A stretch of 50,378 nt of DNA from a virus (lineage: Duplodnaviria > Heunggongvirae > Uroviricota > Caudoviricetes): positions 1 to 50,378 of IMG/VR virus record IMGVR_UViG_2562617057_000009, one strand, 5' to 3'. The notes below the pieces were generated by a model. It was not told the DNA's origin. It ran no database searches and saw only the letters and a program-made list of their open reading frames with translations. A program made the position numbers and the translations under genes. Shown here one piece after another: positions 8,719 through 48,946 of this stretch; the stretch's first letter is position 1, and each line of letters starts with the position of its first letter.

Positions 8719-9432
8719 ATGGCAGTGAACACCGCAATTTTTAACGACAAAGTATCCATGACCAGCGTTGAAATCGCAGAGTTGGTGGGTAAACGTCATG
8801 ACAATGTGAAACGCACTATTGAAACATTAGCCAAAGGTGGCGTTGTCCGGTCTCCTCAAATTGAGGTTTCCGAAAGAATCAATAACTTAGGTTTTAAAGT
8901 TCAATATGAGCATTACCTGTTTGAAGGAGAGCAAGGTAAGCGCGACAGTATCATTGTCGTCGCACAGCTCTGTCCTGAATTTACTGCTCGCCTGGTAGAT
9001 CGCTGGCGCGAACTGGAAGAACAGATCCGTAAGCCAATGAGCGAAATCGAAATGGTTGCCGCGATGGCTCTTGAAGCAGTTCGTCAGCAAAAACGCCTCG
9101 ACAAGATGGAAGAAAAAGTCAGCCATGTTGCCGAAACAGTTGAGCAAATCAAAAAGGGTACCATTCGTGAGGGCTATGCCGGATATCGCCAGCTGAAAGC
9201 AAAAACCGGTATGTCAGATGCGAAATGTCGCAATCTGGTGAACGCATATCAGATCCCTACCGATACCCATGAATTTATGACGCCGGATGGATTGTTATCT
9301 CGTCGCGCGATTGTTGCTGTGGAACCGTTTATGGCTGCTTTTTATCGGGTTATGGAGGAAGCAGAACCGCGAGGGACTCGCTGGTATCACCCGAAAATGG
9401 GGTTATTTCAGGTTATTGGTTGGCAGAAATAA
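8719..9432 (+). CDS. Rha-family phage regulatory protein / antirepressor
   Basis: N-terminal Rha-like motif (SVEIAELVGKRHDNVKR); AAGGAG before the ATG at 8719; C-terminal domain shared with 2738-3487. Confidence 0.7.
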   Translation: MAVNTAIFNDKVSMTSVEIAELVGKRHDNVKRTIETLAKGGVVRSPQIEVSERINNLGFKVQYEHYLFEGEQGKRDSIIVVAQLCPEFTARLVDRWRELEEQIRKPMSEIEMVAAMALEAVRQQKRLDKMEEKVSHVAETVEQIKKGTIREGYAGYRQLKAKTGMSDAKCRNLVNAYQIPTDTHEFMTPDGLLSRRAIVAVEPFMAAFYRVMEEAEPRGTRWYHPKMGLFQVIGWQK

Positions 9433-9484
9433 GAAAGGCCGGCAGAGAAAACCGGCCAGTCGGGTTTATCGTCGGAGATATTAC

Positions 9485-10309
9485 GTGAAAAACAATATCA
9501 AAGTTTTCGATTTTAAATCAAGCACTGGTGAATTGTTGTCATCAGTTCGTAGTGTGGTCATTGATTCAACACCATGGTTTTTTGCCGTGGATATATGTAA
9601 CGCGCTGGGGCTGACAAATACTGCTATCTCCCTTCAGTCCATCGATGATGAAGATAAAACCGAATATAAGGATTACTTAGGTTCGGGACGTAAGCCTTTG
9701 CTGGTCAATGAATCCGGGCTCTATGCGCTGATTATCAAAAGTCGAAAAAAACAGGCAAGACGTTTTAAACGGTGGATTACATCGGAGGTAATTCCCTCAA
9801 TTCGTAAAACGGGGAATTACTGTCTTACCACAATGGCATCCCTACCAGATTTTAGCGATCCGGCTGCTGCTGCCCGTGCCTGGGCGGACGAATATGAGGC
9901 TAAAAACAGAGCAATTAGTTACGTTCATCGTCAGGCCCAATACATCGAACATCTGGAAAATTTATTCCAGCCTGGCATGACACCGGTTCAGTTCTGCAAG
10001 CAACTTAATGGAGTAAATGTTCAGCGCATCACAGCATTTCTGGAGGCTCACAACTGGCTTTATGACGAGCGTCCTGAATCGCGAAGCCCCGCATGGCGTG
10101 TAAAGGCATATGCCCGAGATCTGTATCTGACCGAACGTCACCACTATATCGATTCAGGTTATGAAGAAGGGTTTTATTCGTACACACCAGTTCTTCTCCA
10201 GAAAGGGGCGGTCTGGATTTATCGCCAGTATCTTAGAGGTGCATTACCCATGAAGAGAAACTGGAATGGCGAATTTACTCACGATAAAGAACTGGCGGGT
10301 GCTGCATGA
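9485..10309 (+). CDS. Bro-N / KilAC-type antirepressor
   Basis: Bro-N-like N-terminus (WFFAVDICNALGLTN) and antirepressor-like C-terminal half; GTG start after GGAGA. Confidence 0.7.
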   Translation: MKNNIKVFDFKSSTGELLSSVRSVVIDSTPWFFAVDICNALGLTNTAISLQSIDDEDKTEYKDYLGSGRKPLLVNESGLYALIIKSRKKQARRFKRWITSEVIPSIRKTGNYCLTTMASLPDFSDPAAAARAWADEYEAKNRAISYVHRQAQYIEHLENLFQPGMTPVQFCKQLNGVNVQRITAFLEAHNWLYDERPESRSPAWRVKAYARDLYLTERHHYIDSGYEEGFYSYTPVLLQKGAVWIYRQYLRGALPMKRNWNGEFTHDKELAGAA

Positions 10310-10965
10310 TTGTTCTCCAAGATATTGATTCTGCAATTTCGGGACGTTACACTGTCTCTGCCCCTTATAAAGCGGGGGCCGGGATTGGAACCCCGGAATT
10401 GATCGAGGCGATATACGACGCGCCAGCGTCTTTTTTATCGTCCGCGCTCACGCACGCCAGAATTATGGTGGGCTGGGCAGGGGAGCCGAAAGGCTCGCCG
10501 GTTTCCTTGATCGCCGGTAGTTCCAACCCTGTTCAGTCCGCCACCAGCGAGCTTGGAACCTCCGGTGGTGGAAGTTTTTCACCGATCAAGGAGGCTGCCA
10601 TCATGGCTACGATCCCAGTTTCCCCATTCCTCAAAATCGAAGTCGTCAACGGCAAGGCCGTTATTTTCTCTTTGCATGTAGCCTGCCATTTCAAGCGCAT
10701 GCACCAGAACATCGTCGACAAAATCGAGTATCTGAACTGCTCGCGCGAATTTTTTACCCGCAATTTCATACCGGGTACTTACCACATCTATGACGACTCT
10801 CTGCGTGGTTATTACATCACCCTTGATGGTCTGATGCTGCTTCAGCTTGGGTTAAGTCTGCGCACAATGCGGTACTACGAGAGTTGCATTGAAGCGTTCC
10901 ATGAGGCTGAAACCGTCCAGGTGCATTCCGCTTTCCGTCGTCATCAACGGGAGGTGCACCTATGA
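10306..10965 (+). CDS. module 1: Rha-like domain protein; the 5' ~300 nt of the ORF is a structured leader (alternative start ATG 10603 after AAGGAGG gives a 120-aa protein)
   Basis: C-terminal 120 aa are Rha-like; ORF start overlaps the upstream stop (ATGA). Confidence 0.55.
   Translation: MIVLQDIDSAISGRYTVSAPYKAGAGIGTPELIEAIYDAPASFLSSALTHARIMVGWAGEPKGSPVSLIAGSSNPVQSATSELGTSGGGSFSPIKEAAIMATIPVSPFLKIEVVNGKAVIFSLHVACHFKRMHQNIVDKIEYLNCSREFFTRNFIPGTYHIYDDSLRGYYITLDGLMLLQLGLSLRTMRYYESCIEAFHEAETVQVHSAFRRHQREVHL
10356..10602 (+). ncRNA. candidate c4/ImmI-like antisense regulatory element, copy 1
   Basis: Hairpin gcccc/ggggc (10360-10379), hairpin plus U-tract 10417-10436, GAAA-tetraloop hairpin 10480-10499, loop CCTTGATCG complementary to the SD region CGATCAAGG (10583-10591), GTTCCAA complementary to TTGGAAC at 10385 and 10553. 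Confidence 0.5.
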
Positions 10966-11621
10966 TCCGCTACCTGAATATTGATTCTGCAATTTCGGGA
11001 CGTTACACTGTCTCCGCACCTTATAAAGCGGGTGCCGGGATTTGCACCCCGGAATTGTCAACGGCGATATACGACGCGCCAGCGTCTTTTTTATCGTCCG
11101 CGCTCACGCACGCCAGAATTATGGTGGGCTGGGCAGGGGAGCCGAAAGGCTCGCCGGTCTCCGTTGACGCCGGTAGTGCAAACCCTGTTCAGTCCGCCAC
11201 CAGCGAGATTTGCACCTCCGGTGGTGGAAGTTTTCCACAGTCAACGGAGGCTGCCATCATGGCTACAGTCCCAACCCACTCATTCCTCAAAATTGAGACC
11301 GTCAACGGCAAGGCCGTTATTTTCTCTTTGCATGTGGCCTGCCACTTTAAGCGCATGCACCAGAACATCGTCGACAAAATCGAGTATCTGAACTGCTCGC
11401 GCGAATTTTTTACCCGCAATTTCATACCGGGTACTTACCACATCTATGACGACTCTCTGCGTGGTTATTACATCACCCTTGATGGTCTGATGCTGCTTCA
11501 GCTTGGGTTAAGTCTGCGCACAATGCGGTACTACGAGAGTTGCATTGAAGCGTTCCATGAGGCTGAAACCGTCCAGGTGCATTCCGCTTTCCGTCGTCAT
11601 CAACGGGAGGTGCACCTATGA
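10962..11621 (+). CDS. module 2: Rha-like domain protein (alternative start ATG 11259)
   Basis: Paralog of module 1; GGGAGGTG precedes the ATG, which overlaps the upstream stop. Confidence 0.55.
   Translation: MIRYLNIDSAISGRYTVSAPYKAGAGICTPELSTAIYDAPASFLSSALTHARIMVGWAGEPKGSPVSVDAGSANPVQSATSEICTSGGGSFPQSTEAAIMATVPTHSFLKIETVNGKAVIFSLHVACHFKRMHQNIVDKIEYLNCSREFFTRNFIPGTYHIYDDSLRGYYITLDGLMLLQLGLSLRTMRYYESCIEAFHEAETVQVHSAFRRHQREVHL
11012..11258 (+). ncRNA. candidate c4/ImmI-like antisense regulatory element, copy 2 (different specificity)
   Basis: Same architecture with compensatory changes: gcacc/ggtgc, TTTGCAC/GTGCAAA, CCGTTGACG versus GTCAACGG at the SD. Confidence 0.5.
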
Positions 11622-12478
11622 TCCGCTACCTGAATATTGATTCTGCAATTCCGGGACGTTACACTGTCTCTGCACCTTATAAAGCGGGTGCCGGGATTGG
11701 CGTCCTGAAATTCAATATAGAGCATAACCGCGCTCATGCGGTTTTTTCGTGTCATGAGCATTGCTACGCCCAAATTATGGTGGGGCGTGCAGGGGCATCG
11801 CAAGATGCGCCGGGTTCTATGTTGACCGGTTACGCCAACCCTGTACGTCTCACCACCTCTGTGATTGGCGTCCCATGTGGTGAGTTCTTTGAATTCAACA
11901 TAGGGGCTGTCACCATGACTACTCTCCCAACCCTCTCTCAACCTGAAATTGCCATCGTTGATGGTCAGGCTGTTACTTCATCCCTGGCTGTTGCCAACTT
12001 CTTCTCTAAACGTCATGACGATGTTCTGAAAAAGATCCGCATTTTGGATTGTTCTCCAGAGTTTTGTGCCCGCAATTTTGCGGAGACATCAATTTTGGTA
12101 CGCCAGCCCAACGGCGGTACTCGCAAACTTCCCTGCTACCAAATCACCCGCGACGGCTTCGCCTTCCTTGCTATGGGCTTCACTGGTAAACGTGCCGCCC
12201 GGTTCAAAGAGGCATACATCAATGCCTTTAACCAGATGGAGAGGAGCTTATCAGGAGCTGGTGCGGCTGACATGTCATCTGTCGCACAAAACGCCAGAGG
12301 CGTATACCTGCATTTGCGTGAAATCCATCAAATCTGGACAAGCCAGCTTTACCCAATGCTTAAGGCCGTTGAATCTCCGCTGGCTGGCAAACTGTACGAC
12401 CGTGTAGGTGATGCTGTTTTTGGTGCTGCACTTGTTGATTCCAGGCTGAATGGTTCTGACAAGGAGGTGCGCCCATGA
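11618..12478 (+). CDS. module 3: full Rha-family regulatory protein (alternative start ATG 11915)
   Basis: Rha-like motif (VTSSLAVANFFSKRHDDVLKKIR); diverged leader of the same design. Confidence 0.6.
   Translation: MIRYLNIDSAIPGRYTVSAPYKAGAGIGVLKFNIEHNRAHAVFSCHEHCYAQIMVGRAGASQDAPGSMLTGYANPVRLTTSVIGVPCGEFFEFNIGAVTMTTLPTLSQPEIAIVDGQAVTSSLAVANFFSKRHDDVLKKIRILDCSPEFCARNFAETSILVRQPNGGTRKLPCYQITRDGFAFLAMGFTGKRAARFKEAYINAFNQMERSLSGAGAADMSSVAQNARGVYLHLREIHQIWTSQLYPMLKAVESPLAGKLYDRVGDAVFGAALVDSRLNGSDKEVRP
11667..11914 (+). ncRNA. candidate c4/ImmI-like antisense regulatory element, copy 3 (third specificity)
   Basis: Terminator-like hairpin aaccgc/gcggtt plus U-run at 11726-11749, GCAA-tetraloop hairpin, TTGGCGT/ACGCCAA pairing, loop CTATGTTGA complementary to TCAACATAG next to the SD. 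Confidence 0.45.
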
Positions 12479-14492: not shown

Positions 14493-15880
14493 CAACTCCA
14501 GTATGGCGTAACGATGACCTTGAAGGCGCTGTCATCGGCGCGTTCTTTCTGCGCGGAGCAGATCCTGAAGTGATGGATATTCTGGCCACACTGCCAGCGG
14601 ACGTTTTTTCTGTACGAGCGTATCAGGATATCTATACAGGCATCTGCAGACAGGCCCGTGTTTCAGGAGTGATTGACCCCGTGCTGTTGTGTAATGAGAT
14701 GCCGGAACTTGCCCCGGTGATTACTGATACCGGGCGTAAAACCTGGGTGAAGTCTTCACTGGAGCACTATGTTGCAGCGTTGCGGCGCAATGCCGCACTG
14801 CGCGATGCAGAAAAAACACTGAATGAGGCGCTGCAGAAATTACGTGATGCGCATACCTGTGAAGCAGCTGAAGATGCCCTGAAGGATGCGCAGAACATGA
14901 TGGTCACACTGTCGACAGGAAAGGGCGTCATTCAGCCGGTACATATTGATGATGTGCTTCCGGAAGTGGTTGAGCGTGTTGAATGCCGGAATCAGGGGCT
15001 GGAGAAATCCAGGACGTTGATGACCGGTATTGATGAACTGGACGCAAAAACAGGCGGTATGGAGCCCGGAGACCTGGTATTCATTGCCGCCCGTCCTTCG
15101 ATGGGGAAAACCGAACTTGCGCTGGACATCATCGACAAGGTGACTGAGCAGGGGCATGGTGTGCTTCTGTTCACCATGGAGATGGCGAACATCCAGATTG
15201 GTGAACGTATGGTGTCTGCGGCTGGAGGGATGCCAGTATCACGCCTGAAATCTGTGGCTCACTTTGAAGATGAAGACTGGACGCGTTTCTCACAAGGGGT
15301 GGGGCGGATGACCGGGCGCAATATCTGGATGGTGGACCAGGCGAACCTGGCCATTGATGAGATATGCGCAACAACGAAACACCACCTGATTAAATATCCG
15401 GAAACGGCGCTGGTGGTGGTTGATTATCTCGGGCTGATAAAAACCCGAACCACGGGGCGTCATGACCTTGCCGTGGGTGAAATCTCAAAGGGGCTTAAAG
15501 GCCTGGCAAAATCCGGTGGTTTTCCGTTGATTGCGCTGAGCCAGCTCTCCCGCGGTGTGGAGTCCAGACCCAATAAACGTCCCATGAACTCAGACCTGAA
15601 AAATTCCGGAGAAATAGAGGCGGATGCAGACATCATTCTGATGCTTTACAGGGATGAAGTGTACAACCCGGATACGCAGGCCAGGGGCATCGCAGAAATC
15701 AATATCACGAAACAACGTAACGGTTCTCTGGGAACGATTTACCGGCGTTTTTATAACGGACATTTTCTGCCTGTGGACCAGGAAAGTGCACGGGTGCTTT
15801 CCACTCCCATGAAGCCCGGCAATCCGCGCAGATACAGTAATAAACGAACTGACAGCAGTAAGATGGAGCGTTTCTTTTGA
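14489..15880 (+). CDS. DnaB-like replicative DNA helicase
   Basis: 463 aa with Walker A ARPSMGKTELAL and DnaB-like C-terminal motifs. Confidence 0.85.
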   Translation: MTTPVWRNDDLEGAVIGAFFLRGADPEVMDILATLPADVFSVRAYQDIYTGICRQARVSGVIDPVLLCNEMPELAPVITDTGRKTWVKSSLEHYVAALRRNAALRDAEKTLNEALQKLRDAHTCEAAEDALKDAQNMMVTLSTGKGVIQPVHIDDVLPEVVERVECRNQGLEKSRTLMTGIDELDAKTGGMEPGDLVFIAARPSMGKTELALDIIDKVTEQGHGVLLFTMEMANIQIGERMVSAAGGMPVSRLKSVAHFEDEDWTRFSQGVGRMTGRNIWMVDQANLAIDEICATTKHHLIKYPETALVVVDYLGLIKTRTTGRHDLAVGEISKGLKGLAKSGGFPLIALSQLSRGVESRPNKRPMNSDLKNSGEIEADADIILMLYRDEVYNPDTQARGIAEINITKQRNGSLGTIYRRFYNGHFLPVDQESARVLSTPMKPGNPRRYSNKRTDSSKMERFF

Positions 15881-16134
15881 ACAACCAGACAATGACTTTT
15901 ACCCCTGAACAATTGCGTAAACACGCGCAGGAAATGCTGCGTCATGCTGAACAACTCGAAAAAACGGGCATAACAAAAGATGCTATCCGTAAAGATATGG
16001 TACCCGCGCTTCGGGAACTGATGCAGGCGAAGCATCGCGCACAGAAAGCAGTAGATGAGCTGGTGGACTGTGTGGCAGAGCTGGAAACCAGAGTCGGAAA
16101 GTTTGAAAAACTGGTGCAGGAGGCGCTGCGCTGA
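15877..16134 (+). CDS. hypothetical small phage protein
   Basis: 85-aa ORF overlapping the helicase stop. Confidence 0.45.
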   Translation: MNNQTMTFTPEQLRKHAQEMLRHAEQLEKTGITKDAIRKDMVPALRELMQAKHRAQKAVDELVDCVAELETRVGKFEKLVQEALR

Positions 16135-16225
16135 TGCGCCATGAGTTTGTTTTGCCCTGGCTTGTGCGCGATCATTATGTCCCTGGTGGAAAGCCCGGGA
16201 TAAAAATCACCGAACCGGAGAGTAT

Positions 16226-16429
16226 TTGATGAGCGTCAAAATTCAAACGATACCGGAACTGCTTATCCAGACACGAGGTAATATGACCGAAGTTTCACGA
16301 ATGCTGAACTGTAATCGCGCCACGGTAAGAAAATATGCTGAAGATAAAGAGGGCAAAGGGCACGCCATTGTTGATGGTGTTCTGATTGTTCATCGTGGAT
16401 GGGACAGGGGTAAAGACAGTGATGCGTGA
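16226..16429 (+). CDS. ninH: NinH-like protein
   Basis: Pattern TIPELL...[34 protein letters not shown] matches lambda NinH as recalled. Confidence 0.65.
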
Positions 16430-16802
16430 TATTCAGCAGGTTCTTGAGCGCTGGGGCGCGTGGGTGGCTAATAATCATGAGGATGTGACCTGGTCGTCCA
16501 TTGCTGCCGGTTTTAAGGGATTAATCCCTTCAAAAGTAAAATCCCGCCCGCAATGCTGTGACGATGACGCGATGGTTATATGTGGGTGTATGGCCCGCCT
16601 TAACCGGAACAACAACGATCTACATGACTTGCTGGTTGACTACTACGTGTTTGGGATGACATTCATGACGCTGGCGCGGAAGCATGGATGCTCAGATGGT
16701 TATATAGGAAAGAAGCTACAAAAAGCCGAGGGGGTGGTGGAAGGAATGTTGATGATGTTGGGTGTCCGGTTAGAAATGGACAAATATATTGAACATCCCT
16801 GA
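16422..16802 (+). CDS. Q: late-gene antiterminator Q (933W/phage-21 type)
   Basis: [23 protein letters not shown]-terminus matches the recalled Stx-phage Q family; position before tRNAs and lysis genes. Confidence 0.7.
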
Positions 16803-16888
16803 TGGTAAGGGGCGACTTTCTAGAAAATATTTTACGTACGTAAAAAACGGGATATTCTGTTAAGAGTGGTTGCTTCGCCACACAGCTT

Positions 16889-16914
16889 AAACCCGCCTCC
16901 GGGCGGGTTTTTTA
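16889..16914 (+). terminator. intrinsic terminator (tR'-like) downstream of Q
   Basis: Hairpin acccgcc-tcc-gggcggg followed by TTTTTTA. Confidence 0.65.
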
Positions 16915-17001
16915 TGCCTGAAAAACGGTACAGGACGTTAAACACGCTGGTGGTCAGATGAGTTTGCAGATGTGATGACATATGGTTATTATTCTGCCTC
17001 C

Positions 17002-17824: not shown

Positions 17825-18454
17825 ATGAAGCATGAAGAAATGAATCAGCGATTCAATCACCTGGAAAATGAAATCACTGAGCTTAATAAAAAATTGTCGG
17901 CGTTGGTGAGTTCTGAAGATGAAAACAAACGCCGCGATGAGCATTATGCGGCGATTTACGATTACTGCCACAAAGTCGCTCACGAGACTTTTATGAAGTT
18001 TTTGCAGGAAAAGTTTTTACCGGCCGCATTGTCAGAAAAAGAGGCGGCTTACCTGCGGCCTGAGTACGTCATTACGGTTAACAGTGCCGGAGAGGAAGAG
18101 CATAAAAGTGATTTTATTGCGTCTGCACCGGATAAAGACCAGGAACCCCGTCGGCCTTTCAGGGTTTCCTGTGAAGAGGGTGAGTTCGTCGTTTATGAGA
18201 ACGGAAAACCTGTCCGGGCATCGCATCATCACTGCCTGAAAATTATTAATCTCGCTATCAGATGCCTGAAAGACGAAAACACCAGAGTTATGAAACGCAT
18301 TGGCCGTTGCATGGGGTATTTGCAGGTGGCGGCAGAGATTGAAGCACTTGCCAGTGGTGCAGACATGGATGCTGCGGTGCGGGAGGCTCTTCTTCGTGAT
18401 TTCAATACTCCCCCTTTAAGAAAGAGCCTGATGACTGGATCCAGCCGGGGCTGA
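17825..18454 (+). CDS. hypothetical 209-aa protein inserted between holin and endolysin
   Basis: Acidic, coiled-coil-like N-terminus; no lysis-protein features. Confidence 0.55.
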   Translation: MKHEEMNQRFNHLENEITELNKKLSALVSSEDENKRRDEHYAAIYDYCHKVAHETFMKFLQEKFLPAALSEKEAAYLRPEYVITVNSAGEEEHKSDFIASAPDKDQEPRRPFRVSCEEGEFVVYENGKPVRASHHHCLKIINLAIRCLKDENTRVMKRIGRCMGYLQVAAEIEALASGADMDAAVREALLRDFNTPPLRKSLMTGSSRG

Positions 18455-18519
18455 CTTATCTTAAAAGGCGTATATAAGTTGGCTCGTTATTTGTTGCCGA
18501 TAAATCCTGATAAATATCC

Positions 18520-19053
18520 ATGAGCGCAAAAATCAAATACGGCCTGTCGGCTGCTGTTCTGGCGCTGATTGCCGCAGGCGCGTCTGCTCCCCAGATACTT
18601 GACCAGTTTCTGAACGAAAAAGAGGGTAATCACACAACGGCATACCGTGATGGTTCTGGCATATGGACCATCTGTCGTGGTGCCACAATGGTGGATGGTA
18701 AGCCTGTCATACCGGGAATGAAGCTGTCGAAGGAAAAATGTGACCAGGTTAACGCTATTGAACGTGATAAGGCGCTGGCATGGGTGGAGCGCAATATTAA
18801 AGTACCTCTGACCGAACCACAGAAAGCGGGTATAGCGTCATTTTGTCCCTATAACATTGGCCCCGGTAAGTGTTTTCCGTCGACGTTTTATAAGCGGCTG
18901 AATGCTGGTGATCGTAAAGGTGCATGCGAGGCGATTCGCTGGTGGATAAAAGATGTTGGGCGCGATTGCCGCATACGTTCAAATAACTGCTATGGACAGG
19001 TTATTCGTCGTGACCAGGAAAGCGCATTAGCCTGTTGGGGGATAGATCAATGA
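18520..19053 (+). CDS. R: SAR endolysin (T4-type lysozyme with N-terminal signal-arrest-release domain)
   Basis: Gly/Ala-rich N-terminal membrane segment followed by catalytic E-x8-D-x5-T ([16 protein letters not shown]). Confidence 0.85.
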
Positions 19054-19517
19054 GCAGAGTCACCGCGATTATCTCCGCTCTGGTTATCTGCATCATCGTC
19101 TGCCTGTCATGGGCTGTTAATCATTACCGTGATAACGCCATTACCTACAAAGAGCAGCGCGACAAAAACGCAAGAGAACTGAAGCTGGCGAACGCAACCA
19201 TTACTGACATGCAGCAGCGCCAGCGTTCTGCTGATGCACTCGATGCTAAATACACGAAGGAGTTAGCTGATGCGAAAGCTGAAAATGATGCTCTTCGGCG
19301 CAAGCTTGATAATGGTGGTCGGGTGCTCGTCAAAGGAAAATGCCCTGTGCCATCCTCAGCCGAAACCTCCAGCGCCTCCGGCATGGGCAATGATGCCAGC
19401 GTCGAACTCTCTCCAGTTGCTGGACGAAACGTTCTCGGTATCAGAGACGGAATCATCAGAGACCAGACAGCACTGAGAACGCTTCAGGAATACATCAGAA
19501 CGCAGTGTCTGAATTAA
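19050..19517 (+). CDS. Rz: Rz-like i-spanin
   Basis: N-terminal transmembrane segment then coiled-coil; immediately after the endolysin. Confidence 0.75.
19270..19476 (+). CDS. Rz1: Rz1-like o-spanin lipoprotein embedded in the +1 frame of Rz
   Basis: Lipobox VVGCSS, proline-rich, wholly inside Rz in another frame. Confidence 0.6.
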
Positions 19518-19657
19518 CGGAGCTGGAATGAATGCTGTTTACCTGTTGCGGAAATAAAGATTGCATATTGCGACAATTTGTTGCATGTTTAAGGTGCGCT
19601 TTTCCAGAGCGTATGCGTACGCACCGCATGAAGTACAACCACAGAGAGGCAACCATA

Positions 19658-19888
19658 ATGGCAACAAGCATCCGTTTAGACGATGATTTCGTCAGTGACG
19701 TAAAGGTTCACGCTGATGCCGCAAGTCGCAGCATACCAAAACAAATTGAGCACTGGGCTAAGATTGGTCGTATAGCTGAAGATAATCCAGATCTGCCATT
19801 CAGTTTTATTAGCGAAGTTCTGCTGTCACAAAGCGAAATCAGACACAACAAGGTAACGCGTTATGTCAGAAGAACAGACAGGTCGTGA
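19658..19888 (+). CDS. type II antitoxin (ParD-like)
   Basis: 76-aa ORF after AGAGAGG; overlaps the start of the downstream RelE/ParE-like gene. Confidence 0.55.
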   Translation: MATSIRLDDDFVSDVKVHADAASRSIPKQIEHWAKIGRIAEDNPDLPFSFISEVLLSQSEIRHNKVTRYVRRTDRS

Positions 19889-20192
19889 AATTGATGTTTA
19901 TCAGAGTCGGCGTTTCGAAAAGTCTCTGAGTAAACTCCCGGAAGCGCAACTGAAAGTTGTGGAAGATGAGATCGACAGAATAATTGACAATCCTCTGTTG
20001 GGAACGCAAAAGAAAGGAGACCTCAGTTTTCTTCGTGTGCATAAATTTCAGCTGAATAATCAACAGGTGCTTCTGGGTTACAGCTGGCTTGACGATAAAC
20101 TTGAGCTCTACCTCCTTAGCATCGGTCCACATGAAAATTTTTATACCGATCAGAAAAAACACCGAAAAGCTGATTTAAAACTCATCGGTTAG
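19863..20192 (+). CDS. RelE/ParE-family toxin
   Basis: 109-aa basic protein in a two-gene overlapping arrangement typical of type II TA pairs. Confidence 0.55.
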   Translation: MSEEQTGREIDVYQSRRFEKSLSKLPEAQLKVVEDEIDRIIDNPLLGTQKKGDLSFLRVHKFQLNNQQVLLGYSWLDDKLELYLLSIGPHENFYTDQKKHRKADLKLIG

Positions 20193-20211
20193 TCCTGACG
20201 TCATGCATACC

Positions 20212-20237
20212 AGCCCACGTAAACGCGTGGGCTTTTT
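20212..20237 (+). terminator. intrinsic terminator after the TA pair
   Basis: 8-bp stem agcccacg/cgtgggct followed by TTTTT. Confidence 0.65.
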
Positions 20238-20448
20238 CATATCTGAATTTCACCGCGCACCGCAGCGCATGATAACCACCGAACCTGCCCCTTTGGAATG
20301 AGCCTTTGAGGATACCAGTTAGTGCTGGCGAGCCTCGGTGGGCTGGTTTCCTGTGCGGCAAAGGTTCATTTCAAAGAACAGGTATACGACATGAAATCAT
20401 TAACCTGAGGTGTACTGGCAATAGCGGACACTACCATTTGTTCTTTTT

Positions 20449-21267
20449 TTAAGCAGCCATCTGATGATATTTTTCCCTGAAGGCTGCCGGGGAGATATTC
20501 CCCAGACGAGAGTGACGACGCTGACGATTGTAGAAAATCTCAATGTATTCCCGTATTACTGAGATGGCTTCATCCCGGTTATTAAAACGATAGTGGCTCA
20601 GGCTCTCATTTTTCAGCGTTCCCCAGAAGCTTTCCATCGGAGCGTTGTCGTAACAGTTACCTTTACGCGACATTGATGTTTTCAGACCAAACTGCTCCTG
20701 TATGACCCGGTAATCGTATGCGCAGTACTGTGAACCTCGATCAGAGTGGTGGATTAGCCCGGCAGGTGGGCGCTGGCTCCTGAGCGCCATAAACAGGGCT
20801 TTACCTGTCAGCTCTTTTGTCATGCGCTCTCCCATGGCGTAGCCGACAATTTCGCACGTATAAACATCTTTGATGCCAGCGAGGTACAACCATCCCTCCT
20901 GTGTGGCAACATACGTCAGGTCCGCCACCCAGACCTGATTTGGTGCTGTAGGAGCGAACGTCTGGTTCAGCAGATTTGGCGCAACTGGCAGATTGTGGTT
21001 CGAGTTCGTAGTCGCTCTGAACTTGCGTTTCTGCTTACAGCGTAGCCTTAGCTCCTTACGAAGACGTGCCAGTCGGTCACGACCAACGATGATGCCATTC
21101 TCTGCCAGCTCCGTCTGGAGCCGCCGGGTTCCATATGTTTCGCGAGTGCGGATATGTGCCACCTTAATCTCCAGTTTTAGCCGCTCATCACTTTGTTTTC
21201 TGTCTGAGGGTTCATGCTGTACCCAGTTGTAATAACCGCTCCTGGATACACCAAATACCTGACACAT
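20449..21267 (-). CDS. IS3-family transposase OrfB (DDE catalytic domain)
   Basis: DDE-type integrase-core motifs; located after orfA with overlap expected for frameshifted OrfAB. Confidence 0.75.
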   Translation of the reverse strand: MCQVFGVSRSGYYNWVQHEPSDRKQSDERLKLEIKVAHIRTRETYGTRRLQTELAENGIIVGRDRLARLRKELRLRCKQKRKFRATTNSNHNLPVAPNLLNQTFAPTAPNQVWVADLTYVATQEGWLYLAGIKDVYTCEIVGYAMGERMTKELTGKALFMALRSQRPPAGLIHHSDRGSQYCAYDYRVIQEQFGLKTSMSRKGNCYDNAPMESFWGTLKNESLSHYRFNNRDEAISVIREYIEIFYNRQRRHSRLGNISPAAFREKYHQMAA

Positions 21268-21302
21268 CGCTTCAATGGGAAATTGTTGTCGCCATTGTTC
21301 GA

Positions 21303-21605
21303 TTAACGCGTATTTTTCAGCGACTCCTGTGCAAAATACGCTGTTGCTTTTTTTAATATATCTCGCTCAAGGCGAGCTTCATTTAACGCCTTACGCAGTT
21401 GCAGAATTTCAGATTCCAGTTCAGCCACCGTGCGGGAACCAGGAGTACCGAGCCCTTTTCTGGCGGCGGTAACCCATTGTCCTAAAGTGCCTTCAGGAAG
21501 GGATAATCGGGAAGCGCCTTCACTGATCGAAAGTTGATTTTCAAGAACCGTTCTGACAGCTTCGGCTTTGAACTCTTTAGAGTAACGTTGGGTTTTTCTG
21601 CTCAT
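21303..21605 (-). CDS. IS3-family transposase OrfA
   Basis: 100-aa HTH protein typical of IS3-family OrfA. Confidence 0.75.
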   Translation of the reverse strand: MSRKTQRYSKEFKAEAVRTVLENQLSISEGASRLSLPEGTLGQWVTAARKGLGTPGSRTVAELESEILQLRKALNEARLERDILKKATAYFAQESLKNTR

Positions 21606-22151
21606 TATTAGCTCCTTCTGATGCCATTCTATTTCAGGAAGGAGTGTCCGTTAAACTCAGGCTACCTCAACCCTCTTCAATCAGCCAATCCGTATCGGTG
21701 AAGATGGCATGATCTGCCTCACTGATATGTGGAAAGCCAGTGGTAAAAGTGAATCTGAATCTCCGTACCACTACCTGCGAAACAAGCAGACCAAAGAGTT
21801 CTTAGCCGAGCTGGAGAAAAACCACGAATCTGTGGTTTTTACTGAGCGCGGTGTACACGGTGGAACATATGGCGGGAAGTTTGTTGCTTATGATTATGCA
21901 GCATGGCTAAACCCCGGATTTAAATATGCAGCCTATAAAGTCCTGGATGACTACTTCACCGGAGAACTTCAGCATCGCAACAGCTTAAGTGCGCAGCTCA
22001 ATATGAAGTGTCATGAGTTTGATCAGAAAAAAGATATGGCGAGCTTCTGTGGACAAGGGCTGGCGGCATGGCGCTATACGAAGCCAGTGTTGGTCGCTGA
22101 GATTAACTCCCTGGCTAACCAGCTGCAGATAACGATCCCCGGGCTTCCGGG

Positions 22152-22409
22152 ATGAGTGATCGTGTCATTGAATGCGCCTCCAGAGCGGGGCGCGACTTCT
22201 CAGAGTTCATGAAAGGCGAGAAGGGCATGATGGAAGCATTGGCCTCGGTGGATGAGTTTGGCGAGCAGCTGCGCCTCAACGGCTGTGTCAATCATCACTT
22301 TGTTAGCTACATGATGCGGAACTCGATCATGCAGGCATTCATGGACATGGCAAAAGCCGAGAGGAAAGAAGAGCGCCGGCGTAAGCGAGCGGAAGCAAAA
22401 GCGAAGTAG
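22152..22409 (+). CDS. hypothetical protein
   Basis: 85-aa ORF overlapping the KilA-N stop. Confidence 0.45.
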   Translation: MSDRVIECASRAGRDFSEFMKGEKGMMEALASVDEFGEQLRLNGCVNHHFVSYMMRNSIMQAFMDMAKAERKEERRRKRAEAKAK

Positions 22410-22832
22410 CCATTACAAAGCCCATCTACTGGTGGGCTTGATAATGGCTTATACCCTACACGGGATAACTTAACTGATATCCCTTTTAACGGATAAAGGT
22501 ATTCAAGCCTGACACATCATGCGCTGTATCGTCGCTGTATTCCCGCATTAACCATGACCGTAGCCCGACGGGGAACTCCTTCTGCGCGAGTGTGCGGGAA
22601 TAATCAAAAACGATGCACACCGGGTTTTTACCGCGTTTATGGTTCGCGGGTTTGTCCCTCATGCTCGCCAGTCCTGTGCGGGGGTGGAAGAAACAGGACA
22701 CTTACACTGATTCTTGTGGGTACGATGCTATTCCTTTCTGGATTATCCCGATGTCATTCATGCAGGGCGCTGTATCAGACGTTCGTCATGGCTGTCAGGC
22801 TGACGGGTCCTCCCGGTGGGGTGGCCTGCCAC

Positions 22833-22980
22833 GGGGCGGGAGCGGCGCAGAATTTCACTATTTATGAAAATTTTTCGGAAACCATGTCCGGTTTCTCTGA
22901 AGGTTAACCATTTGAAAAATATAGAAATGTGCCTTCTGCGAACCGGACATGCGCAAAAATTGAACACTCAAACCGGACAT
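22833..22980. other. cos region (cosN-like core ggggcgggagcggcgc and ACCGGACAT repeats) of the lambdoid prophage
   Basis: Sequence pattern ...TTACGGGGCGG...CTATTTATGAAAATTTT... resembles the recalled lambda cos; ~220 bp upstream of Nu1. Confidence 0.6.
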
Positions 22981-23058
22981 ATATGCCGCGTTTCATAAAG
23001 TTGTTCGCAAGATGCATGTTTAAAACGCATGAGGGGAGATTTTTTGGCGAGGTGAACA

Positions 23059-23568
23059 GTGGCTACTCAGACTGAAGTTGCCAGGCATTTGAGTCTGACC
23101 GATCGCCAGCTTCGCAGATTACAGAAACTGCCGGGTGCCCCGGTTTCGAACAAGCGAGGACAACTGGATCTGGATGCCTGGCGTGATTTTTACATATCGT
23201 ATCTGAGAAGAAGTAAAAACGATGTGCCTGATGGTGATCCGGAAGAGGATTATGAAGAGAAACTACTCATTGCGAGATGGGAACTGACCGCAGAACAGGC
23301 TGTCGCACAGCAGTTAAAAAATCAGGTGTCAAAAGGAAATCTTATTGATAGCGGATTTTGTATTTTTGCCCTTAGTAAGCTGGCGATGGCTTTATCCAGT
23401 ACGCTTGACTCCATTCCTTTGTCCATGCAACGACAGTTCCCGGATTTAACGCCGCGTCATATTGATCATCTGAAAATCCTTATTGCTAAGGGAGCGAATC
23501 AGTGCGCGCGTGCGGGGGATAAATTACCGGATTTACTCGATGAATATATCAGAACAACAACTGAGTAA
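23059..23568 (+). CDS. nu1: terminase small subunit (lambda Nu1-like)
   Basis: C-terminal region aligns with recalled lambda Nu1 (FCIFALSKLA...LPLSMQRQFPDL...HIDHLK); GTG start. Confidence 0.8.
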   Translation: MATQTEVARHLSLTDRQLRRLQKLPGAPVSNKRGQLDLDAWRDFYISYLRRSKNDVPDGDPEEDYEEKLLIARWELTAEQAVAQQLKNQVSKGNLIDSGFCIFALSKLAMALSSTLDSIPLSMQRQFPDLTPRHIDHLKILIAKGANQCARAGDKLPDLLDEYIRTTTE

Positions 23569-24900
23569 TATGATGGTGGCAGTCACTATCGCACTGCAGC
23601 CACTGGTCAGGGTATTGCCGGTGACGGCTGTAGAATGGGCCGATCAAAATTATTACCTGCCTAAAGAATCGTCATACGGTGAGGGGGAATGGAAAACGCT
23701 GCCGTTTCAGGTCGCCATCATGAACTGCATGGGCAATGACGAGATTCGTACAGTTAACCTGATTAAATCTGCCCGTGTTGGTTATACAAAGATGTTGCTG
23801 GGGGTGGTCGGGTATTTTATTGAGCATAAATCCCGCAACAGCCTGCTTTTTCAGCCCACTGACTCGGCTGCTGAAGATTTTATGAAGTCTCACGTGGAGT
23901 CGACGATCCGGGACGTACCCTGTCTGAAAGCCCTTTCTCCATGGCTGGGACGTAAACATCGTGACAATACCCTCACACTGAAACGCTTTTCCTCCGGCGT
24001 GGGATTCTGGTGTCTGGGCGGTGCAGCTGCCAAAAACTACCGTGAAAAATCTGTGGATGTGGTCTGCTATGACGAACTCTCCTCGTTTGAACCGGATGTG
24101 GAAAAAGAAGGTTCGCCGACGCTGCTTGGCGATAAACGTATCGAAGGTTCGGTATGGCCTAAATCCATACGCGGCTCAACGCCAAAAATTAAAGGCTCCT
24201 GTCAGATTGAAAAAGCTGCGAATGAATCTGCGCATTTCATGCGGTTTTATGTCCCTTGCCCTCATTGCGGGGAGGAGCAGTATCTGAAGTTTGGCGATGA
24301 TGCGACGTCGTTTGGCCTGAAATGGGAGAAGGGTAAACCGGAAACGGTGTATTACCTGTGTGAACATAATGGCTGCGTGATCCGTCAGTCTGAACTTGAT
24401 CAGACCGGGGGGCGCTGGATTTGTGACAATACCGGGATGTGGACGCGTGACGGCCTGACATTTTACAGCGTCGGTGATGAGGAGATACCCCCGCCACGTT
24501 CTGTCACTTTCCACATCTGGACGGCGTACAGCCCGTTCACTACCTGGGCGCAGATTGTTTATGACTGGCTGGATGCACTGAAGGATCCTAACGGCGTCAA
24601 GACGTTTGTAAACACCACACTGGGGGAGACCTGGGAAGAGGCCGTGGGCGAAAAACTCGATCACCAGGTGCTGATGGATAAGGTTGTGCATTACCCGGCG
24701 GCGGTGCCTGTCCGGGTGGTTTACCTGACTGCTGGTATTGACTCGCAGCGAAACCGTTTTGAGATGTATGTCTGGGGATGGGCTCCGGGAGAGGAAGCCT
24801 TTCTGGTGGATAAAATCATCATTATGGGACGACCTGATGAGGAAGAGACGCTGTTACGTGTGGATGCGGCGATCAACAAAAAATACCGCCATGCAGACGG
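23540..24900 (+). pseudogene. A: terminase large subunit (lambda gpA-like), 3'-truncated by IS1
   Basis: Collinear with recalled lambda A for ~450 aa (TAVEWADQNYYLPKES...); reading frame runs into the IS1 left end at 24901. Confidence 0.8.
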
Positions 24901-24955
24901 GGTGATGCTGCCAACTTACTGATTTAGTGTATGATGGTGTTTTTGAGGTGCTCCA

Positions 24956-25231
24956 GTGGCTTCTGTTTCTATCAGCTGTCCCTCCTGTTCAGCTACTGAC
25001 GGGGTGGTGCGTAACGGCAAAAGCACCGCCGGACATCAGCGCTATCTCTGCTCTCACTGCCGTAAAACATGGCAACTGCAGTTCACTTACACCGCTTCTC
25101 AACCCGGTACGCACCAGAAAATCATTGATATGGCCATGAATGGCGTTGGATGCCGGGCAACTGCCCGCATTATGGGCGTTGGCCTCAACACGATTTTACG
25201 TCACTTAAAAAACTCAGGCCGCAGTCGGTAA
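24956..25231 (+). CDS. insA: IS1 InsA
   Basis: 91-aa protein matching recalled InsA. Confidence 0.9.
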
Positions 25232-25653
25232 CCTCGCGCATACAGCCGGGCAGTGACGTCATCGTCTGCGCGGAAATGGACGAACAGTGGGGCTATGTCG
25301 GGGCTAAATCGCGCCAGCGCTGGCTGTTTTACGCGTATGACAGTCTCCGGAAGACGGTTGTTGCGCACGTATTCGGTGAACGCACTATGGCGACGCTGGG
25401 GCGTCTTATGAGCCTGCTGTCACCCTTTGACGTGGTGATATGGATGACGGATGGCTGGCCGCTGTATGAATCCCGCCTGAAGGGAAAGCTGCACGTAATC
25501 AGCAAGCGATATACGCAGCGAATTGAGCGGCATAACCTGAATCTGAGGCAGCACCTGGCACGGCTGGGACGGAAGTCGCTGTCGTTCTCAAAATCGGTGG
25601 AGCTGCATGACAAAGTCATCGGGCATTATCTGAACATAAAACACTATCAATAA
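25150..25653 (+). CDS. insB: IS1 InsB reading frame
   Basis: 167-aa ORF matching recalled InsB. Confidence 0.85.
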
Positions 25654-25668
25654 GTTGGAGTCATTACC

Positions 25669-25951
25669 CGGTATAGCGTATGACGATCCGGGGAGCGGAA
25701 ATAACCTAGGAGGCACGCGATACACGGGTTATGGTTTTGAAGTTCGCAAAAACGGCGTATTAATCGCATCCAGAGAAACTAAAGGGGCCATTCCCGGTAG
25801 TTACAGTGCAGTTATTGATATGCCTAGTGGTGGTGGTAGCGTCACTCTGGAGTTTAAGATTTTCCAGAAAGGCAATCAGGGGGCAGGCAATATCACCGAC
25901 TGTACGGTGATTGTGACCAAAAAAGCGGCTTCCGGCATCAGTATTCGTTGA
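25669..25951 (+). pseudogene. 3' fragment of a tail protein gene (probably host-specificity protein J, by position upstream of lom)
   Basis: Open frame begins at the IS1 right end without a start codon. Confidence 0.4.
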
Positions 25952-26020
25952 AATTGTTATAACCCATATAAGGGCACCAGAAATGGTGCCTTTTTTATTG
26001 CAGAAAAGCGAGAGGTAATT

Positions 26021-26620
26021 ATGCGTAAACTTTATGCCGCCATTTTGTCCGCAGCCATTTGTCTGGCCGTATCCGGTGCGCCTGCATGGGCATCTGAACA
26101 TCAGTCCACGCTGAGCGCGGGGTATCTTCATGCCTCGACGAACGTTCCCGGCAGCGATGATCTTAACGGGATTAACGTGAAATACCGTTATGAGTTTACG
26201 GACACACTGGGGCTGGTGACGTCATTCAGCTATGCAGGAGACAAGAATCGCCAGCTTACCCGTTACAGCGATACCCGCTGGCATGAAGATTCCGTGCGTA
26301 ACCGCTGGTTCAGCGTGATGGTGGGGCCGTCTGTGCGCGTGAATGAATGGTTCAGCGCGTATGCGATGGCGGGTATGGCTTACAGCCGTGTGTCGACTTT
26401 CTCCGGGGATTATCTCCGCGTAACTGACAACAAGGGGAAAACGCACGATGTGCTGACCGGGAGTGATGACAACCGCCACAGCAACACGTCTCTGGCGTGG
26501 GGGGCTGGCGTGCAGTTTAACCCGACCGAATCCGTGGCCATTGACCTTGCTTATGAAGGTTCCGGCAGTGGCGACTGGCGCACTGACGGTTTCATCGTGG
26601 GTGTCGGTTATAAGTTCTGA
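26021..26620 (+). CDS. lom: Lom/Ail/PagC-family outer-membrane protein
   Basis: Signal peptide, beta-barrel-like alternating pattern, C-terminal ...GVGYKF. Confidence 0.8.
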
Positions 26621-26683
26621 TTAGCCAGGTAACACAGTGTTATGACAGCCCGCTGGTTCAGGCGGGCTTTTTGTGGGGTGAAT

Positions 26684-28099
26684 ATGGCAGTAAAGATTTC
26701 AGGTGTACTGAAAGATGGGGCGGGTAAACCTGTCGTAAATTGTGCGATTGAACTGCGGGCCAGAAGAACCAGTCCGACCGTTGTGGCACACGTTGTTGCC
26801 ACTTGCGTGACGGACAATAACGGTGCTTATGTGATTGAGGCTGAGCCGGGGTATTACGAGGTTGCGCTTCACTGTAACGGCTGGCAGCCAACCCGTGTCG
26901 GGGATATTGATGTGGCACCGACTGATGCACCGGGGACACTGAACGCGTTTCTGAATGCACCAAAGGATGGTGATTTACGTCCGGAGGTGATGAAGCGCTT
27001 TGAGGAAATGGTGGCGCAGGCGCAGCAGAGTGCCGGGGCTGCAGCCGGAAACGCACAGCAGACGGCGCAGGATGTGGCGCCAGCCGCAACGGCCCGTGAT
27101 GATGCACAACGTTTTGCGGAGAATGCCAGACAGGATGCAGTTGCCACTGCAGAGGACAGAAAGGCCACTGCGGAAGACGTGAAAAGCACGGGGAAAAACG
27201 CCGTCTTATCCGGTCAGCGTGCACAGGCAGCCGCAGGTTATGCCCGCGCAGCAGAACAGGCCAAAAATGACATTGATGCTGCGCTGACCGGCACTCTGAA
27301 AACGGCTAACCATCTGTCTGAAATCGCAGCAGCAGGCGAAAAGGCACAACAGAAGTCCCGGGATAATCTGGGGCTGAAAAGTGCGGCCACGATGGAAGCA
27401 CAGAGCGACATTTACGACCGGACAAAAGGCCGTCTGGCGATACCCGGCGCATTCGGCTTTGGGTGTGCTTTTCTGCCTGAAGATGTTATCCGTTTTGACA
27501 CTAAGAGTGATTTCCTGGCCTGGGTAAGGAATGCGCTGCCAGGTGAATATTCCGTTGCTGGCCCCTACGACATCATCATACCCGACACACGGTTTGAAGG
27601 GGTGCTCAGCATCCGGTGGACTGATGCACGCCCTGAGACAACAGAACCGCGGTACAGAGCCAAATCCCTTACTTTTTACGGCATTAACGGCCCCATTTAT
27701 CACACCCGCTACTGCTACTGGCCCATATCCAGACTGACTGGCTGGGTGAAAATAAATATAACCACAGAAGATATTATTTACAGAATCGTGGCGAGCTCTG
27801 TCTGCAACAGATGGGGAGACCCTGACATTGGCGGGCTGATTATTGCTGCGTACCAGGGAGAAGCTGACGGTGATAAAGTCATCAGACTTGTCAGGGGGCA
27901 GTCATACAGAGGCTCACGACTGGGACCGGTGGGGATTTCAGTGCCCAGTACTCCCACCGGAACGTATATAGCATCCCCACAATTTTTCATTACGGGATGT
28001 TCAGAGCATTCATTACCGGGGTCATATTGCGCCCTGTCCGGGGTGCCGGATGCACATGTCTCTGGCGCAATGCCCGGGCTTTTTATTCGCACATCGTGA
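26684..28099 (+). CDS. stf: side tail fiber protein (Stf-like)
   Basis: N-terminus MAVKISGVLKDGAGKPV matches recalled lambda Stf; Ala/Gln-rich shaft. Confidence 0.75.
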   Translation: MAVKISGVLKDGAGKPVVNCAIELRARRTSPTVVAHVVATCVTDNNGAYVIEAEPGYYEVALHCNGWQPTRVGDIDVAPTDAPGTLNAFLNAPKDGDLRPEVMKRFEEMVAQAQQSAGAAAGNAQQTAQDVAPAATARDDAQRFAENARQDAVATAEDRKATAEDVKSTGKNAVLSGQRAQAAAGYARAAEQAKNDIDAALTGTLKTANHLSEIAAAGEKAQQKSRDNLGLKSAATMEAQSDIYDRTKGRLAIPGAFGFGCAFLPEDVIRFDTKSDFLAWVRNALPGEYSVAGPYDIIIPDTRFEGVLSIRWTDARPETTEPRYRAKSLTFYGINGPIYHTRYCYWPISRLTGWVKINITTEDIIYRIVASSVCNRWGDPDIGGLIIAAYQGEADGDKVIRLVRGQSYRGSRLGPVGISVPSTPTGTYIASPQFFITGCSEHSLPGSYCALSGVPDAHVSGAMPGLFIRTS

Positions 28100-28109
28100 G
28101 GAATGCACC

Positions 28110-42402: not shown

Positions 42403-43741
42403 CATAAGCGCTAACTTAAGGGTTGAACCATCTGAAGAATGCGACGCCTCGGTGCCTCGTTAAGACGATGCCTCGCGTTCTTCAATTGCGTTTTGTAGGC
42501 TGTCAGGGATACTGTCCCACGAATGGCCACCTGTAAGCTCCAGATGACCATTTTTGTTATTCTCCACAACGAGTTAGTTCTTCTTTTCGGATCCGGCACT
42601 TCTGGGGGGGAAATCCAGCGATGGCTGGATTATGTCGTCAATTAAAAATGCGGCGAGTAGATTAGCAAATATCCACGCTTTCGCGAGTTCAGGTTCCTTT
42701 GCACGCAAAGCATCCAGGTGCAGCAAACTTTTGAGCCGCTTAAAAGCCAGTTCAATTTGCCATCGCAGACGGTAACAATCAGCCACTTGCTCTGCTGAAT
42801 ATTCATCTTCCGGTAATGATGTTAGCAATAGCACATGGCCCGCTGCTTCCAGCGTTTCCGCCTGAACTACTCGTCCTTTTCGACGATTCTCGCTGAGCAG
42901 TCGGGTTTTACTGATTAATGCTTTTTCGGGAGGAAGTGATACGGCAATGAGACGTGCCGGAAAGGGAGCTCCGGCTTTTTTATTACCTGAATTGCCTATC
43001 ATTACAGTGGTTTCACCGTTCTTACCGCAATCCAGCCCGCGCAGAAAACCCATCATGTCAAAGCGCATTCCTTCTGCAGTTAACCAGCGCAATCCTCGCC
43101 AGTGAACCCGGACGATATAATCAGCTTCTCCAAAAGCAAGTGAGCGGATACATTCGGGACGCGAACCGAATCCCCGGTCAGCAATGCGTATCTCGTCTGC
43201 CGTTTGCGCAAATCGGTCCAGCCGTTCAGCGTCTCTGCTGTCGGTTAGCTCAAAATCAGTGAACTGACAGGTATGAGGATCATATCCCATATGTAGTCGC
43301 CATTCAGCGCTGCCGCCCCCGGGCGCACTGATTGCTGTTCCATCGACAAGACGCAATCTCTTTCCGCTTGTACAACCCGTAACTGCGGCGCGTACAGCAA
43401 GTGTTTGTGCGGCAAGTATGCCAAACCAGTCGGCGGCATTCCGCAGCCGCTTCAGGAGAGCCACGTCAGATAATGTTGCAACGTCATGGAGCTGAGCCCA
43501 TGCAGTGACTTCACGTAATGACATCCCCCCGGGGCCGTAAGCCAGCCCCAGACGTAGCAGAGTTGCAGCATCACGAATTTCGCGGCGGCGGGTTAGAGCC
43601 CCGGCATTACGTGCCGAAGTATCCAGTTCTTCGGGCTTACCAATATGGGCCAGAATTGCTGACCAGTTATCGTGAGAGTAATTCATCGGCACGTTAAATC
43701 ATATCAGGCGTAATACCACAACCCTTAAGTTAGCGCTTATG
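42403..43741 (-). mobile_element. IS186 (IS4 family, ~1339 bp)
   Basis: Terminal inverted repeats CATAAGCGCTAACTTAAGGGTTG at both ends; transposase matches recalled IS186; flanks differ on the two sides. Confidence 0.8.
42574..43692 (-). CDS. IS186 transposase
   Basis: 372-aa ORF filling the element. Confidence 0.8.
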   Translation of the reverse strand: MPMNYSHDNWSAILAHIGKPEELDTSARNAGALTRRREIRDAATLLRLGLAYGPGGMSLREVTAWAQLHDVATLSDVALLKRLRNAADWFGILAAQTLAVRAAVTGCTSGKRLRLVDGTAISAPGGGSAEWRLHMGYDPHTCQFTDFELTDSRDAERLDRFAQTADEIRIADRGFGSRPECIRSLAFGEADYIVRVHWRGLRWLTAEGMRFDMMGFLRGLDCGKNGETTVMIGNSGNKKAGAPFPARLIAVSLPPEKALISKTRLLSENRRKGRVVQAETLEAAGHVLLLTSLPEDEYSAEQVADCYRLRWQIELAFKRLKSLLHLDALRAKEPELAKAWIFANLLAAFLIDDIIQPSLDFPPRSAGSEKKN

Positions 43742-44058
43742 GGGAATTTTCCCCGCACACGCCGGAGAACTGGATCACCACGCACAACGGCATTGAGTAC
43801 ACGGCACCAGCACCAGGGGAGAACATCCGCGACAACGCTCCAAACTTTCATAAATGGCTTGATCACGCTGCCGGAAAAGATCCGGGCAAGATGATGCGTA
43901 TATGCGCCGCGCTATACATGATTATGGCGAACCGGTACGACTGGCAGATGTTTATTGAGGCCACCGGAGACGGCGGGAGCGGCAAGAGCACTTTCACGCA
44001 CATAGCCAGCCTTCTGGCAGGGAAACAGAACACAGTAAGGCAGTATGACTTTCCGTGA
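43742..44058 (+). pseudogene. internal fragment of a P4-type primase/helicase gene (Walker A GDGGSGKS)
   Basis: Frame reads ...YDWQMFIEATGDGGSGKSTFTHIASLLAGKQN...; no start codon; begins at the IS186 end. Confidence 0.6.
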
Positions 44059-44059
44059 G

Positions 44060-45565: not shown

Positions 45566-45566
45566 G

Positions 45567-46292: not shown

Positions 46293-46299
46293 TTTTTGG

Positions 46300-46545: not shown

Positions 46546-46582
46546 CTCCAAAACTTTTTAAACGAGGGGGGTAAAAACAAAA

Positions 46583-47259: not shown

Positions 47260-47272
47260 GCAACGAGTAACA

Positions 47273-47297: not shown

Positions 47298-47325
47298 ATG
47301 GGTCCTCCCGGTGTAGTGACCTGCC

Positions 47326-48935: not shown

Positions 48936-48946
48936 CGGGAGATTCT

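Follow-up and report, generated by a model that had tools for sequence, protein, structure and literature searches.

IS1-associated loss of 17.2 kb of head and tail genes from the ipaHe prophage of an enteroinvasive Escherichia coli lineage

The window analyzed here, i.e., the complete 50,378-nucleotide stretch of the IMG/VR record IMGVR_UViG_2562617057_000009, contains a lambda-like prophage that carries the ipaHe gene and is located between mlrA (yehV) and btsS (yehU). Positions 13540-34922 of the window (21.4 kb) are 100% identical to the genome of enteroinvasive E. coli (EIEC) strain 53638 (AAKB02000001.1). In lambdoid prophages, int and xis lie at one end, and the gene order proceeds through Q and the lysis genes, Nu1 and A, and the head and tail genes to J, lom and stf. 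The genes retained in the window fit this order, and the full set is present in the orthologous prophage of RMDEC364 (locus L027). The features around the junction described below, together with other elements of the window, are listed in the table; besides lom, the tail fibre genes and ipaHe, the prophage keeps int and xis as well as the regulatory and replication genes.

Table. Features of the ipaHe prophage and the adjacent element (window positions)
Feature	Position	Strand	Evidence or remark
IS1 target in the sister-strain inversion, AGAACGCT (8 bp)	19476-19483		inverted repeat at the two new junctions of L004
IS600	20406-21669		3-bp duplication ACC; simple insertion, specific to this strain
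Small terminase subunit (Nu1-type), intact	23059-23568	+	ORF; PF07471 Phage_Nu1 on identical gene
Large terminase (gpA-type), 5' fragment	23540-24900	+	1361 of 1929 nt (70.6%)
Complete IS1 (IS1A-like)	24901-25668	+	768 bp; forms the deletion junction
IS1 left terminal repeat (IRL)	24901-24923		GGTGATGCTGCCAACTTACTGAT
IS1 right terminal repeat (IRR)	25646-25668		imperfect
insA	24956-25231	+	Pfam Zn_ribbon_InsA and HTH_Tnp_IS1 on 24956-25228
insB'	ends at 25653	+	DDE_Tnp_IS1 on 25150-25650, E=6e-78
Tail-tip gene J, 3' fragment	25669-25951	+	last 283 nt of ~3480-3498
lom (Ail/Lom outer-membrane protein), intact	26021-26620	+	Pfam Ail_Lom 1-199 of 199, E=3e-119
Tail fibre gene	26642-28099	+	ORF; Pfam phage_tail_N on identical gene
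DUF4376 gene, overlaps the tail fibre gene	28050-28673	+	ORF; Pfam DUF4376 on identical gene
ipaHe, T3SS effector E3 ligase, cargo gene, intact	28853-30496	-	547-aa ORF; LRR_TTSS and NEL
MxiE box upstream of ipaHe	30615-30631	-	GTATCGTTTTTTTACAG, 0 mismatches to GTATCGTTTTTTTANAG
IS110-like transposase (satellite-like element)	44117-45292		
Primase fragment (satellite-like element)	45567-46292		
SSB (satellite-like element)	46837-47259		
Lambda-E-type major capsid gene (satellite-like element)	47880-48935		
D-type decoration gene (satellite-like element)	48947-49282		

The cargo gene is annotated as ipaHe both in the sister genome E. coli O121 201805972 (L001) and in RMDEC364. The MxiE box lies 119 nt upstream of its start codon and was identified in a search set to 2 mismatches, for which 0.04 chance matches are expected; the pattern employed, GTATCGTTTTTTTANAG, is the one that we take to be typical of MxiE-regulated promoters. 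Region 9427-11633, with genes for regulators of the ash and Rha families, contains an internal direct repeat of ~720 bp (units 10322-11042 and 10978-11698, ~95% identical), a copy structure unlike that in RMDEC364.

The element between the terminase and tail-tip gene fragments displays all the hallmarks of the IS1 family, namely a length of ~768 bp, imperfect terminal repeats of ~23 bp (78% complementary when the arms are extended to 27 nt), and insA and insB' with the A6C motif of the -1 frameshift (TTAAAAAAC at 25205) and the DDE_Tnp_IS1 domain. In O121 201805972, this element is annotated as an IS1A family transposase with programmed frameshift. A search of the whole window shows that it is the sole IS1 there. 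The 9 bp that flank it, tgcagacgg on the left (24892-24900) and cggtatagc on the right (25669-25677), were compared and contain no direct target duplication of 8-9 bp; the only bases that directly abut both ends are the three bases CGG, with a chance expectation of 1/64, i.e., at chance level. The lack of a duplication is no argument against the identity of the element as IS1 but indicates that this copy is not in the state of a simple insertion. The IS600 element within the same prophage provides an internal control: its insertion site is empty in sister strains (e.g., L006) and it is flanked by the expected duplication, so that ordinary insertions in this prophage look ordinary whereas that of IS1 does not.

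The genes on both sides of IS1 are broken. On the left, the Nu1-type gene, annotated as terminase small subunit in O121 201805972, L002 and RMDEC364, is followed by a large terminase gene that is 100% identical to the intact terL of RMDEC332 as far as the break. Conceptual translation indicates that the reading frame of the fragment runs 7 codons into IS1 and ends at a stop codon at 24920-24922; as judged by Pfam matches, the fragment keeps the whole GpA_ATPase domain and positions 2-142 of the 294 positions of the GpA_nuclease profile. On the right, the remnant of J covers positions 55-134 of the 135 positions of the Pfam profile Ig_GpJ_C, and another ipaH prophage, located at the acnB locus (L003), matches the sequence 25669-26700 at 99.6% identity with the 3' end of its J gene and its lom. 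The terminase breakpoint in intact relatives falls between CATGCAGACGG and AACTGAAATG, and the J breakpoint in the intact L003 prophage between CATTATTTTTAA and CGGTATAGCG; alignment with these relatives thus places both breakpoints without ambiguity. RefSeq annotation of the sister genomes agrees with this structure, with an IS1A transposase between a terminase that lacks the C-terminus and a tail-tip protein that lacks the N-terminus.

In the IS-free prophage of RMDEC364, which occupies the same mlrA/btsS site, encodes the same integrase protein and ipaHe, and has the complete order from Nu1 to stf, the two breakpoints are colinear and 17,230 bp apart (window position 24900 corresponds to position 23969, and the J break, anchored on the stop codon, to position 41200 of L027). 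The same distance of 17,230 bp is obtained from the match coordinates of the CFSAN029787 prophage, and 17,232 bp are missing by comparison with the RMDEC332 prophage when anchored on the J stop codon. The latter two prophages were not retained as the main references because they are located at other sites, and that of CFSAN029787 lacks ipaH; the RMDEC364 orthologue was preferred. In RMDEC332, the terminase gene is followed by W, portal, protease, D, E, FI, FII, Z, U, V, G, T, H, M, L, K, I, J, lom and stf. The loss accordingly comprises every head gene, the tail genes from Z through I, and parts of the two interrupted genes, i.e., 30% of the terminase gene at its 3' end and 92% of J at its 5' end; in total, 18 whole genes (W to I) and the ends of A and J are missing. 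A single IS copy thus joins two sites that, in intact relatives, lie far from each other on the same continuous sequence, which is the configuration expected of an adjacent deletion. The initial annotation of this locus had described IS1 with exactly these coordinates and flanks, a terminase frame ending about two-thirds through, a tail-gene 3' fragment before lom, and the absence of the head and most tail genes, and had predicted that comparison with intact prophages would reveal a missing segment of ~15-20 kb. Re-reading of the sequence and the comparisons above bear out this description in every respect.

The allele on the right side of the junction has a history of its own. The segment 25669-26270, which covers the receptor-binding C-terminal region encoded by J together with the 5' portion of lom, differs from the RMDEC364 orthologue at ~200 of 600 nt and is also unlike the RMDEC332 allele, whereas it is nearly identical to that of the ipaH prophage at the acnB locus. 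This allele distribution points to an exchange of modules between co-resident prophages, which would be normal lambdoid mosaicism, and leaves the conclusion on the deletion unaffected because both ends of the prophage lie at the orthologous chromosomal site. Within lom, O121 201805972 differs from the window by a patch of 18 mismatches.

The junction of terminase, IS1 and J is found in only two of the 5,426 complete E. coli genomes, O121 201805972 and VL7S7, as well as in two further long contigs. Among public assemblies, the chimeric terminase-IS1 ORF is present on 24 contigs and the chimeric IS1-J ORF on 13 contigs from overlapping assemblies, all of the same lineage; most of these are short-read contigs that end within IS1 and are uninformative on the other side of the junction. 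These occurrences show that the junction is inherited within one EIEC lineage. Given that the independent Sanger assembly of 53638, complete long-read genomes and additional long contigs all show it in identical form, it is not an artefact of a collapsed repeat. A reading under which nothing was lost, either because IS1-mediated inversion or translocation carried the head-tail block elsewhere or because the junction reflects an assembly collapse of two IS1 copies, is at odds with this agreement. At the DNA level, nothing else in the window matches the missing 17.2 kb, and its sole protein-level echo there is a capsid gene of an unrelated element (47880-48935) with 47% identity. The 75 nt to the right of the terminase break are found at 100% identity in only six complete E. 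coli genomes and are absent at this level from O121 201805972, the one sister complete genome checked. VL7S7 is one of the six, but there the match lies in a second, distinct prophage that has a Nu1 gene and a terminase 5' end of its own and is disrupted by IS600. No reciprocal junction is detectable in the 5,426 complete E. coli genomes. The initial annotation had named a matching duplication and head-tail genes located elsewhere as the findings that would overturn its interpretation; both were looked for, and neither the duplication, nor relocated head-tail genes in the window, nor the post-break terminase sequence in O121 201805972 was found.

What lends some substance to the idea of relocation is that in one sister strain, L004 (GCA_900448095.1, UFYX01000005.1), part of this locus is indeed inverted, with IS1 at both ends. 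At positions 6436-12129 of this contig, the equivalent of window 19476-24900 is inverted between two IS1 copies that are 100% identical and oppositely oriented, and the IS1 target (see the table) appears as an inverted repeat at the new junctions. However, the inverted segment extends from parD to the truncated terminase gene and does not include the head-tail genes, which are still absent, and both original IS1 junctions persist. With these data, the possibility that the block was never lost is essentially refuted. The L004 arrangement is a textbook product of IS1 inversion at the same IS1 copy, and IS1 activity thus continues at this locus; it can be accounted for equally well by duplicative inversion and by insertion of a second copy with subsequent IS1-IS1 recombination.

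Whichever route was taken, the association of the deletion with IS1 appears virtually certain, and this part of the initial interpretation, which proposed an IS1-mediated adjacent deletion, stands; the adjacent deletion itself is one of two routes that lead to the same product. IS1 generates duplications of 8 or 9 bp, and its intrachromosomal transposition has been reported to be replicative (PMC12428005); replicative deletions are the topic of Turlan and Chandler 1995 (EMBO J 14:5410), as it is cited in PMC1550401 and PMC12428005. The lack of an IS duplication is usually put down to adjacent deletion or to recombination between IS copies (PMC11708052). In the former scenario, IS1 would first have inserted at either break site or somewhere in between; this copy would then have transposed replicatively into a nearby site of the same DNA molecule and thereby produced the adjacent deletion, such that the intervening DNA would have been left as a circle with the second IS1 copy and subsequently lost, and the chromosome would have retained one IS1 between unrelated flanks. 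We consider this origin of the 17.23-kb loss probable, albeit with modest confidence, on the grounds of parsimony, given that it involves two events, insertion and deletion, as opposed to three, and of the known replicative behaviour of IS1. The principal alternative starts from two independent IS1 insertions of like orientation, of which one hit the terminase gene and the other J close to its 3' end, both flanked by duplications of their own; RecA-dependent recombination between the two copies would then have removed the 17.2 kb and left a single hybrid IS1 with mismatched flanks. Recombination of such direct copies would give a product identical to that of an adjacent deletion and to the one observed, and the sequence does not tell the two routes apart. 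The abundance of IS1 in this lineage is favourable to such a course of events (440 records contain at least 40 IS1 places each, and O121 201805972 at least 40), as is the repeated targeting of this prophage by IS elements in the window and sister genomes (IS600, IS911, and IS1 in dinI of FDAARGOS_943), and recombination between IS copies is a frequent cause of missing duplications (PMC11708052). The need for three events and for matching orientations weighs against it, so that we regard it as a serious possibility that nevertheless falls short of being probable.

Searches for intermediates bear on both routes. Synthetic queries of 100 nt were constructed to represent the simple-insertion precursors, one consisting of the IS1 end, TGCAGACGG and the 3' part of the terminase gene, and the other of the 5' part of J, CGGTATAGC and the IS1 start. 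The terminase-site query retrieves no records at 80% or greater coverage among the 5,426 complete E. coli genomes, a set without Shigella; no J-site insertion is found in the complete E. coli genomes either, where 19 records reach 82% coverage, all of them with an intact J at 92.8% identity. Exact-pattern scans of genome and metagenome contigs, among which the short-read Shigella and EIEC drafts break at IS1, do not detect these precursors. The same is true of viral contigs, but this result carries no weight because the true junction is absent there as well. An ancestor or relative with two copies, i.e., direct IS1s at both breakpoints with their own duplications, is not found in the same searches; this dearth of single-insertion and two-copy states counts against recombination between two copies only to the limited extent of the power of these searches. 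It also bears on the adjacent deletion, for which one junction would be expected to match that of an earlier simple insertion; no such anchoring insertion was found in these collections. The IS1 of FDAARGOS_943, located in the orthologous prophage, was examined as a candidate precursor and rejected given that it sits in dinI and the head module is different. The composition of IS1 target sites does not help to date the junctions because both sites adjoin A+T-rich stretches. The absence of any precursor would also be compatible with a one-step insertion with deletion, of the type proposed by Ngan et al. 2024, in which IS1 is captured at a DNA break or deletion intermediate, without staggered cleavage and hence without a duplication ever being formed; neither junction would then be a former insertion site. 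The study that proposes such capture as a third route (PMC11708052) reports transposed IS elements in the middle of large deletions that lack duplications, but it documents this behaviour for IS5 and IS481 rather than IS1 and classes its 14 IS150 cases as adjacent deletions. Moreover, the classical IS1 pathways already account for the structure, and capture at a break therefore seems improbable; if it did occur, it would extend the pathway of Ngan et al. 2024 to IS1 and to natural pathogen genomes.

Several other rearrangements are apparent in the window and in the sister genomes. The region 43741-50378 is a phage-satellite-like element that is joined to a truncated yehL by a gene of an IS4-family transposase (42574-43692) and resembles capsid-forming satellites of the PICI type. 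In O121, this element is located ~100 kb from the prophage, which implies a further IS-associated rearrangement in 53638. A 300-bp stretch of the element (49766-50065) is 95.7% identical to 22831-23130, a segment that lies just upstream of the Nu1-type gene and extends into its start, and presumably represents the cos region. This similarity suggests that the satellite may be packaged via a terminase of the kind that the prophage, in its decayed state, can no longer supply. In O121 (L001), copies of IS911 at 3165-4333 and 15755-16923 replace window segments 2665-6549 and 17884-19127, respectively, so that this genome lacks 3.9 kb of early genes and the 1.2-kb holin-lysozyme region that are retained in the window. 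In L004, an element of the IS3 family, whose Pfam domains are IS911-like, adjoins the holin gene without that loss. The replacements in O121 look like further IS-associated deletions, possibly with the precursor state preserved.

The junction in the 53638 prophage has close counterparts among known systems. As in the classical IS1-promoted adjacent deletions of the gal region, a single IS1 is kept, contiguous DNA on the kilobase scale is lost, and there is no duplication; the companion outcome of such events, an inversion with an inverted target duplication, is found in L004. Unlike the classical deletions, the event described here is natural and fixed in a lineage, and its replicative route is inferred. 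A single IS with mismatched flanks is equally typical of deletions by recombination between IS copies, as observed in the E. coli long-term evolution experiment (PMC11708052) and in Shigella comparisons (PMC1550401); these, however, require a two-copy ancestor, which was not found in the searches run here. Among the IS elements of Shigella-type genomes, which are known to cause deletions and inversions there, IS1 predominates (PMC1550401). The case also matches the decay of lambdoid prophages through IS activity in EIEC/Shigella and enterohemorrhagic E. coli: structural genes have disappeared, the cargo (here ipaHe and its MxiE box) persists along with lom and the tail fibre genes, and several types of IS occur in one prophage; nothing of substance differs. 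Thus, the event is of a standard, already known kind of prophage decay and involves no new biology beyond the established behaviour of IS1. A description of this particular prophage of 53638 was not found in the literature, and a useful feature of the case is the availability of an IS-free orthologue at the same site, that of RMDEC364, which allows an exact comparison.

Judging from the gene content, the deletion would explain why the ipaHe prophage of the 53638 lineage cannot package DNA or build particles, and ipaHe is now effectively a fixed chromosomal locus. With the empty, deleted and inverted states all represented in sequenced strains, this prophage provides a clean, base-exact case of prophage decay in EIEC and Shigella.
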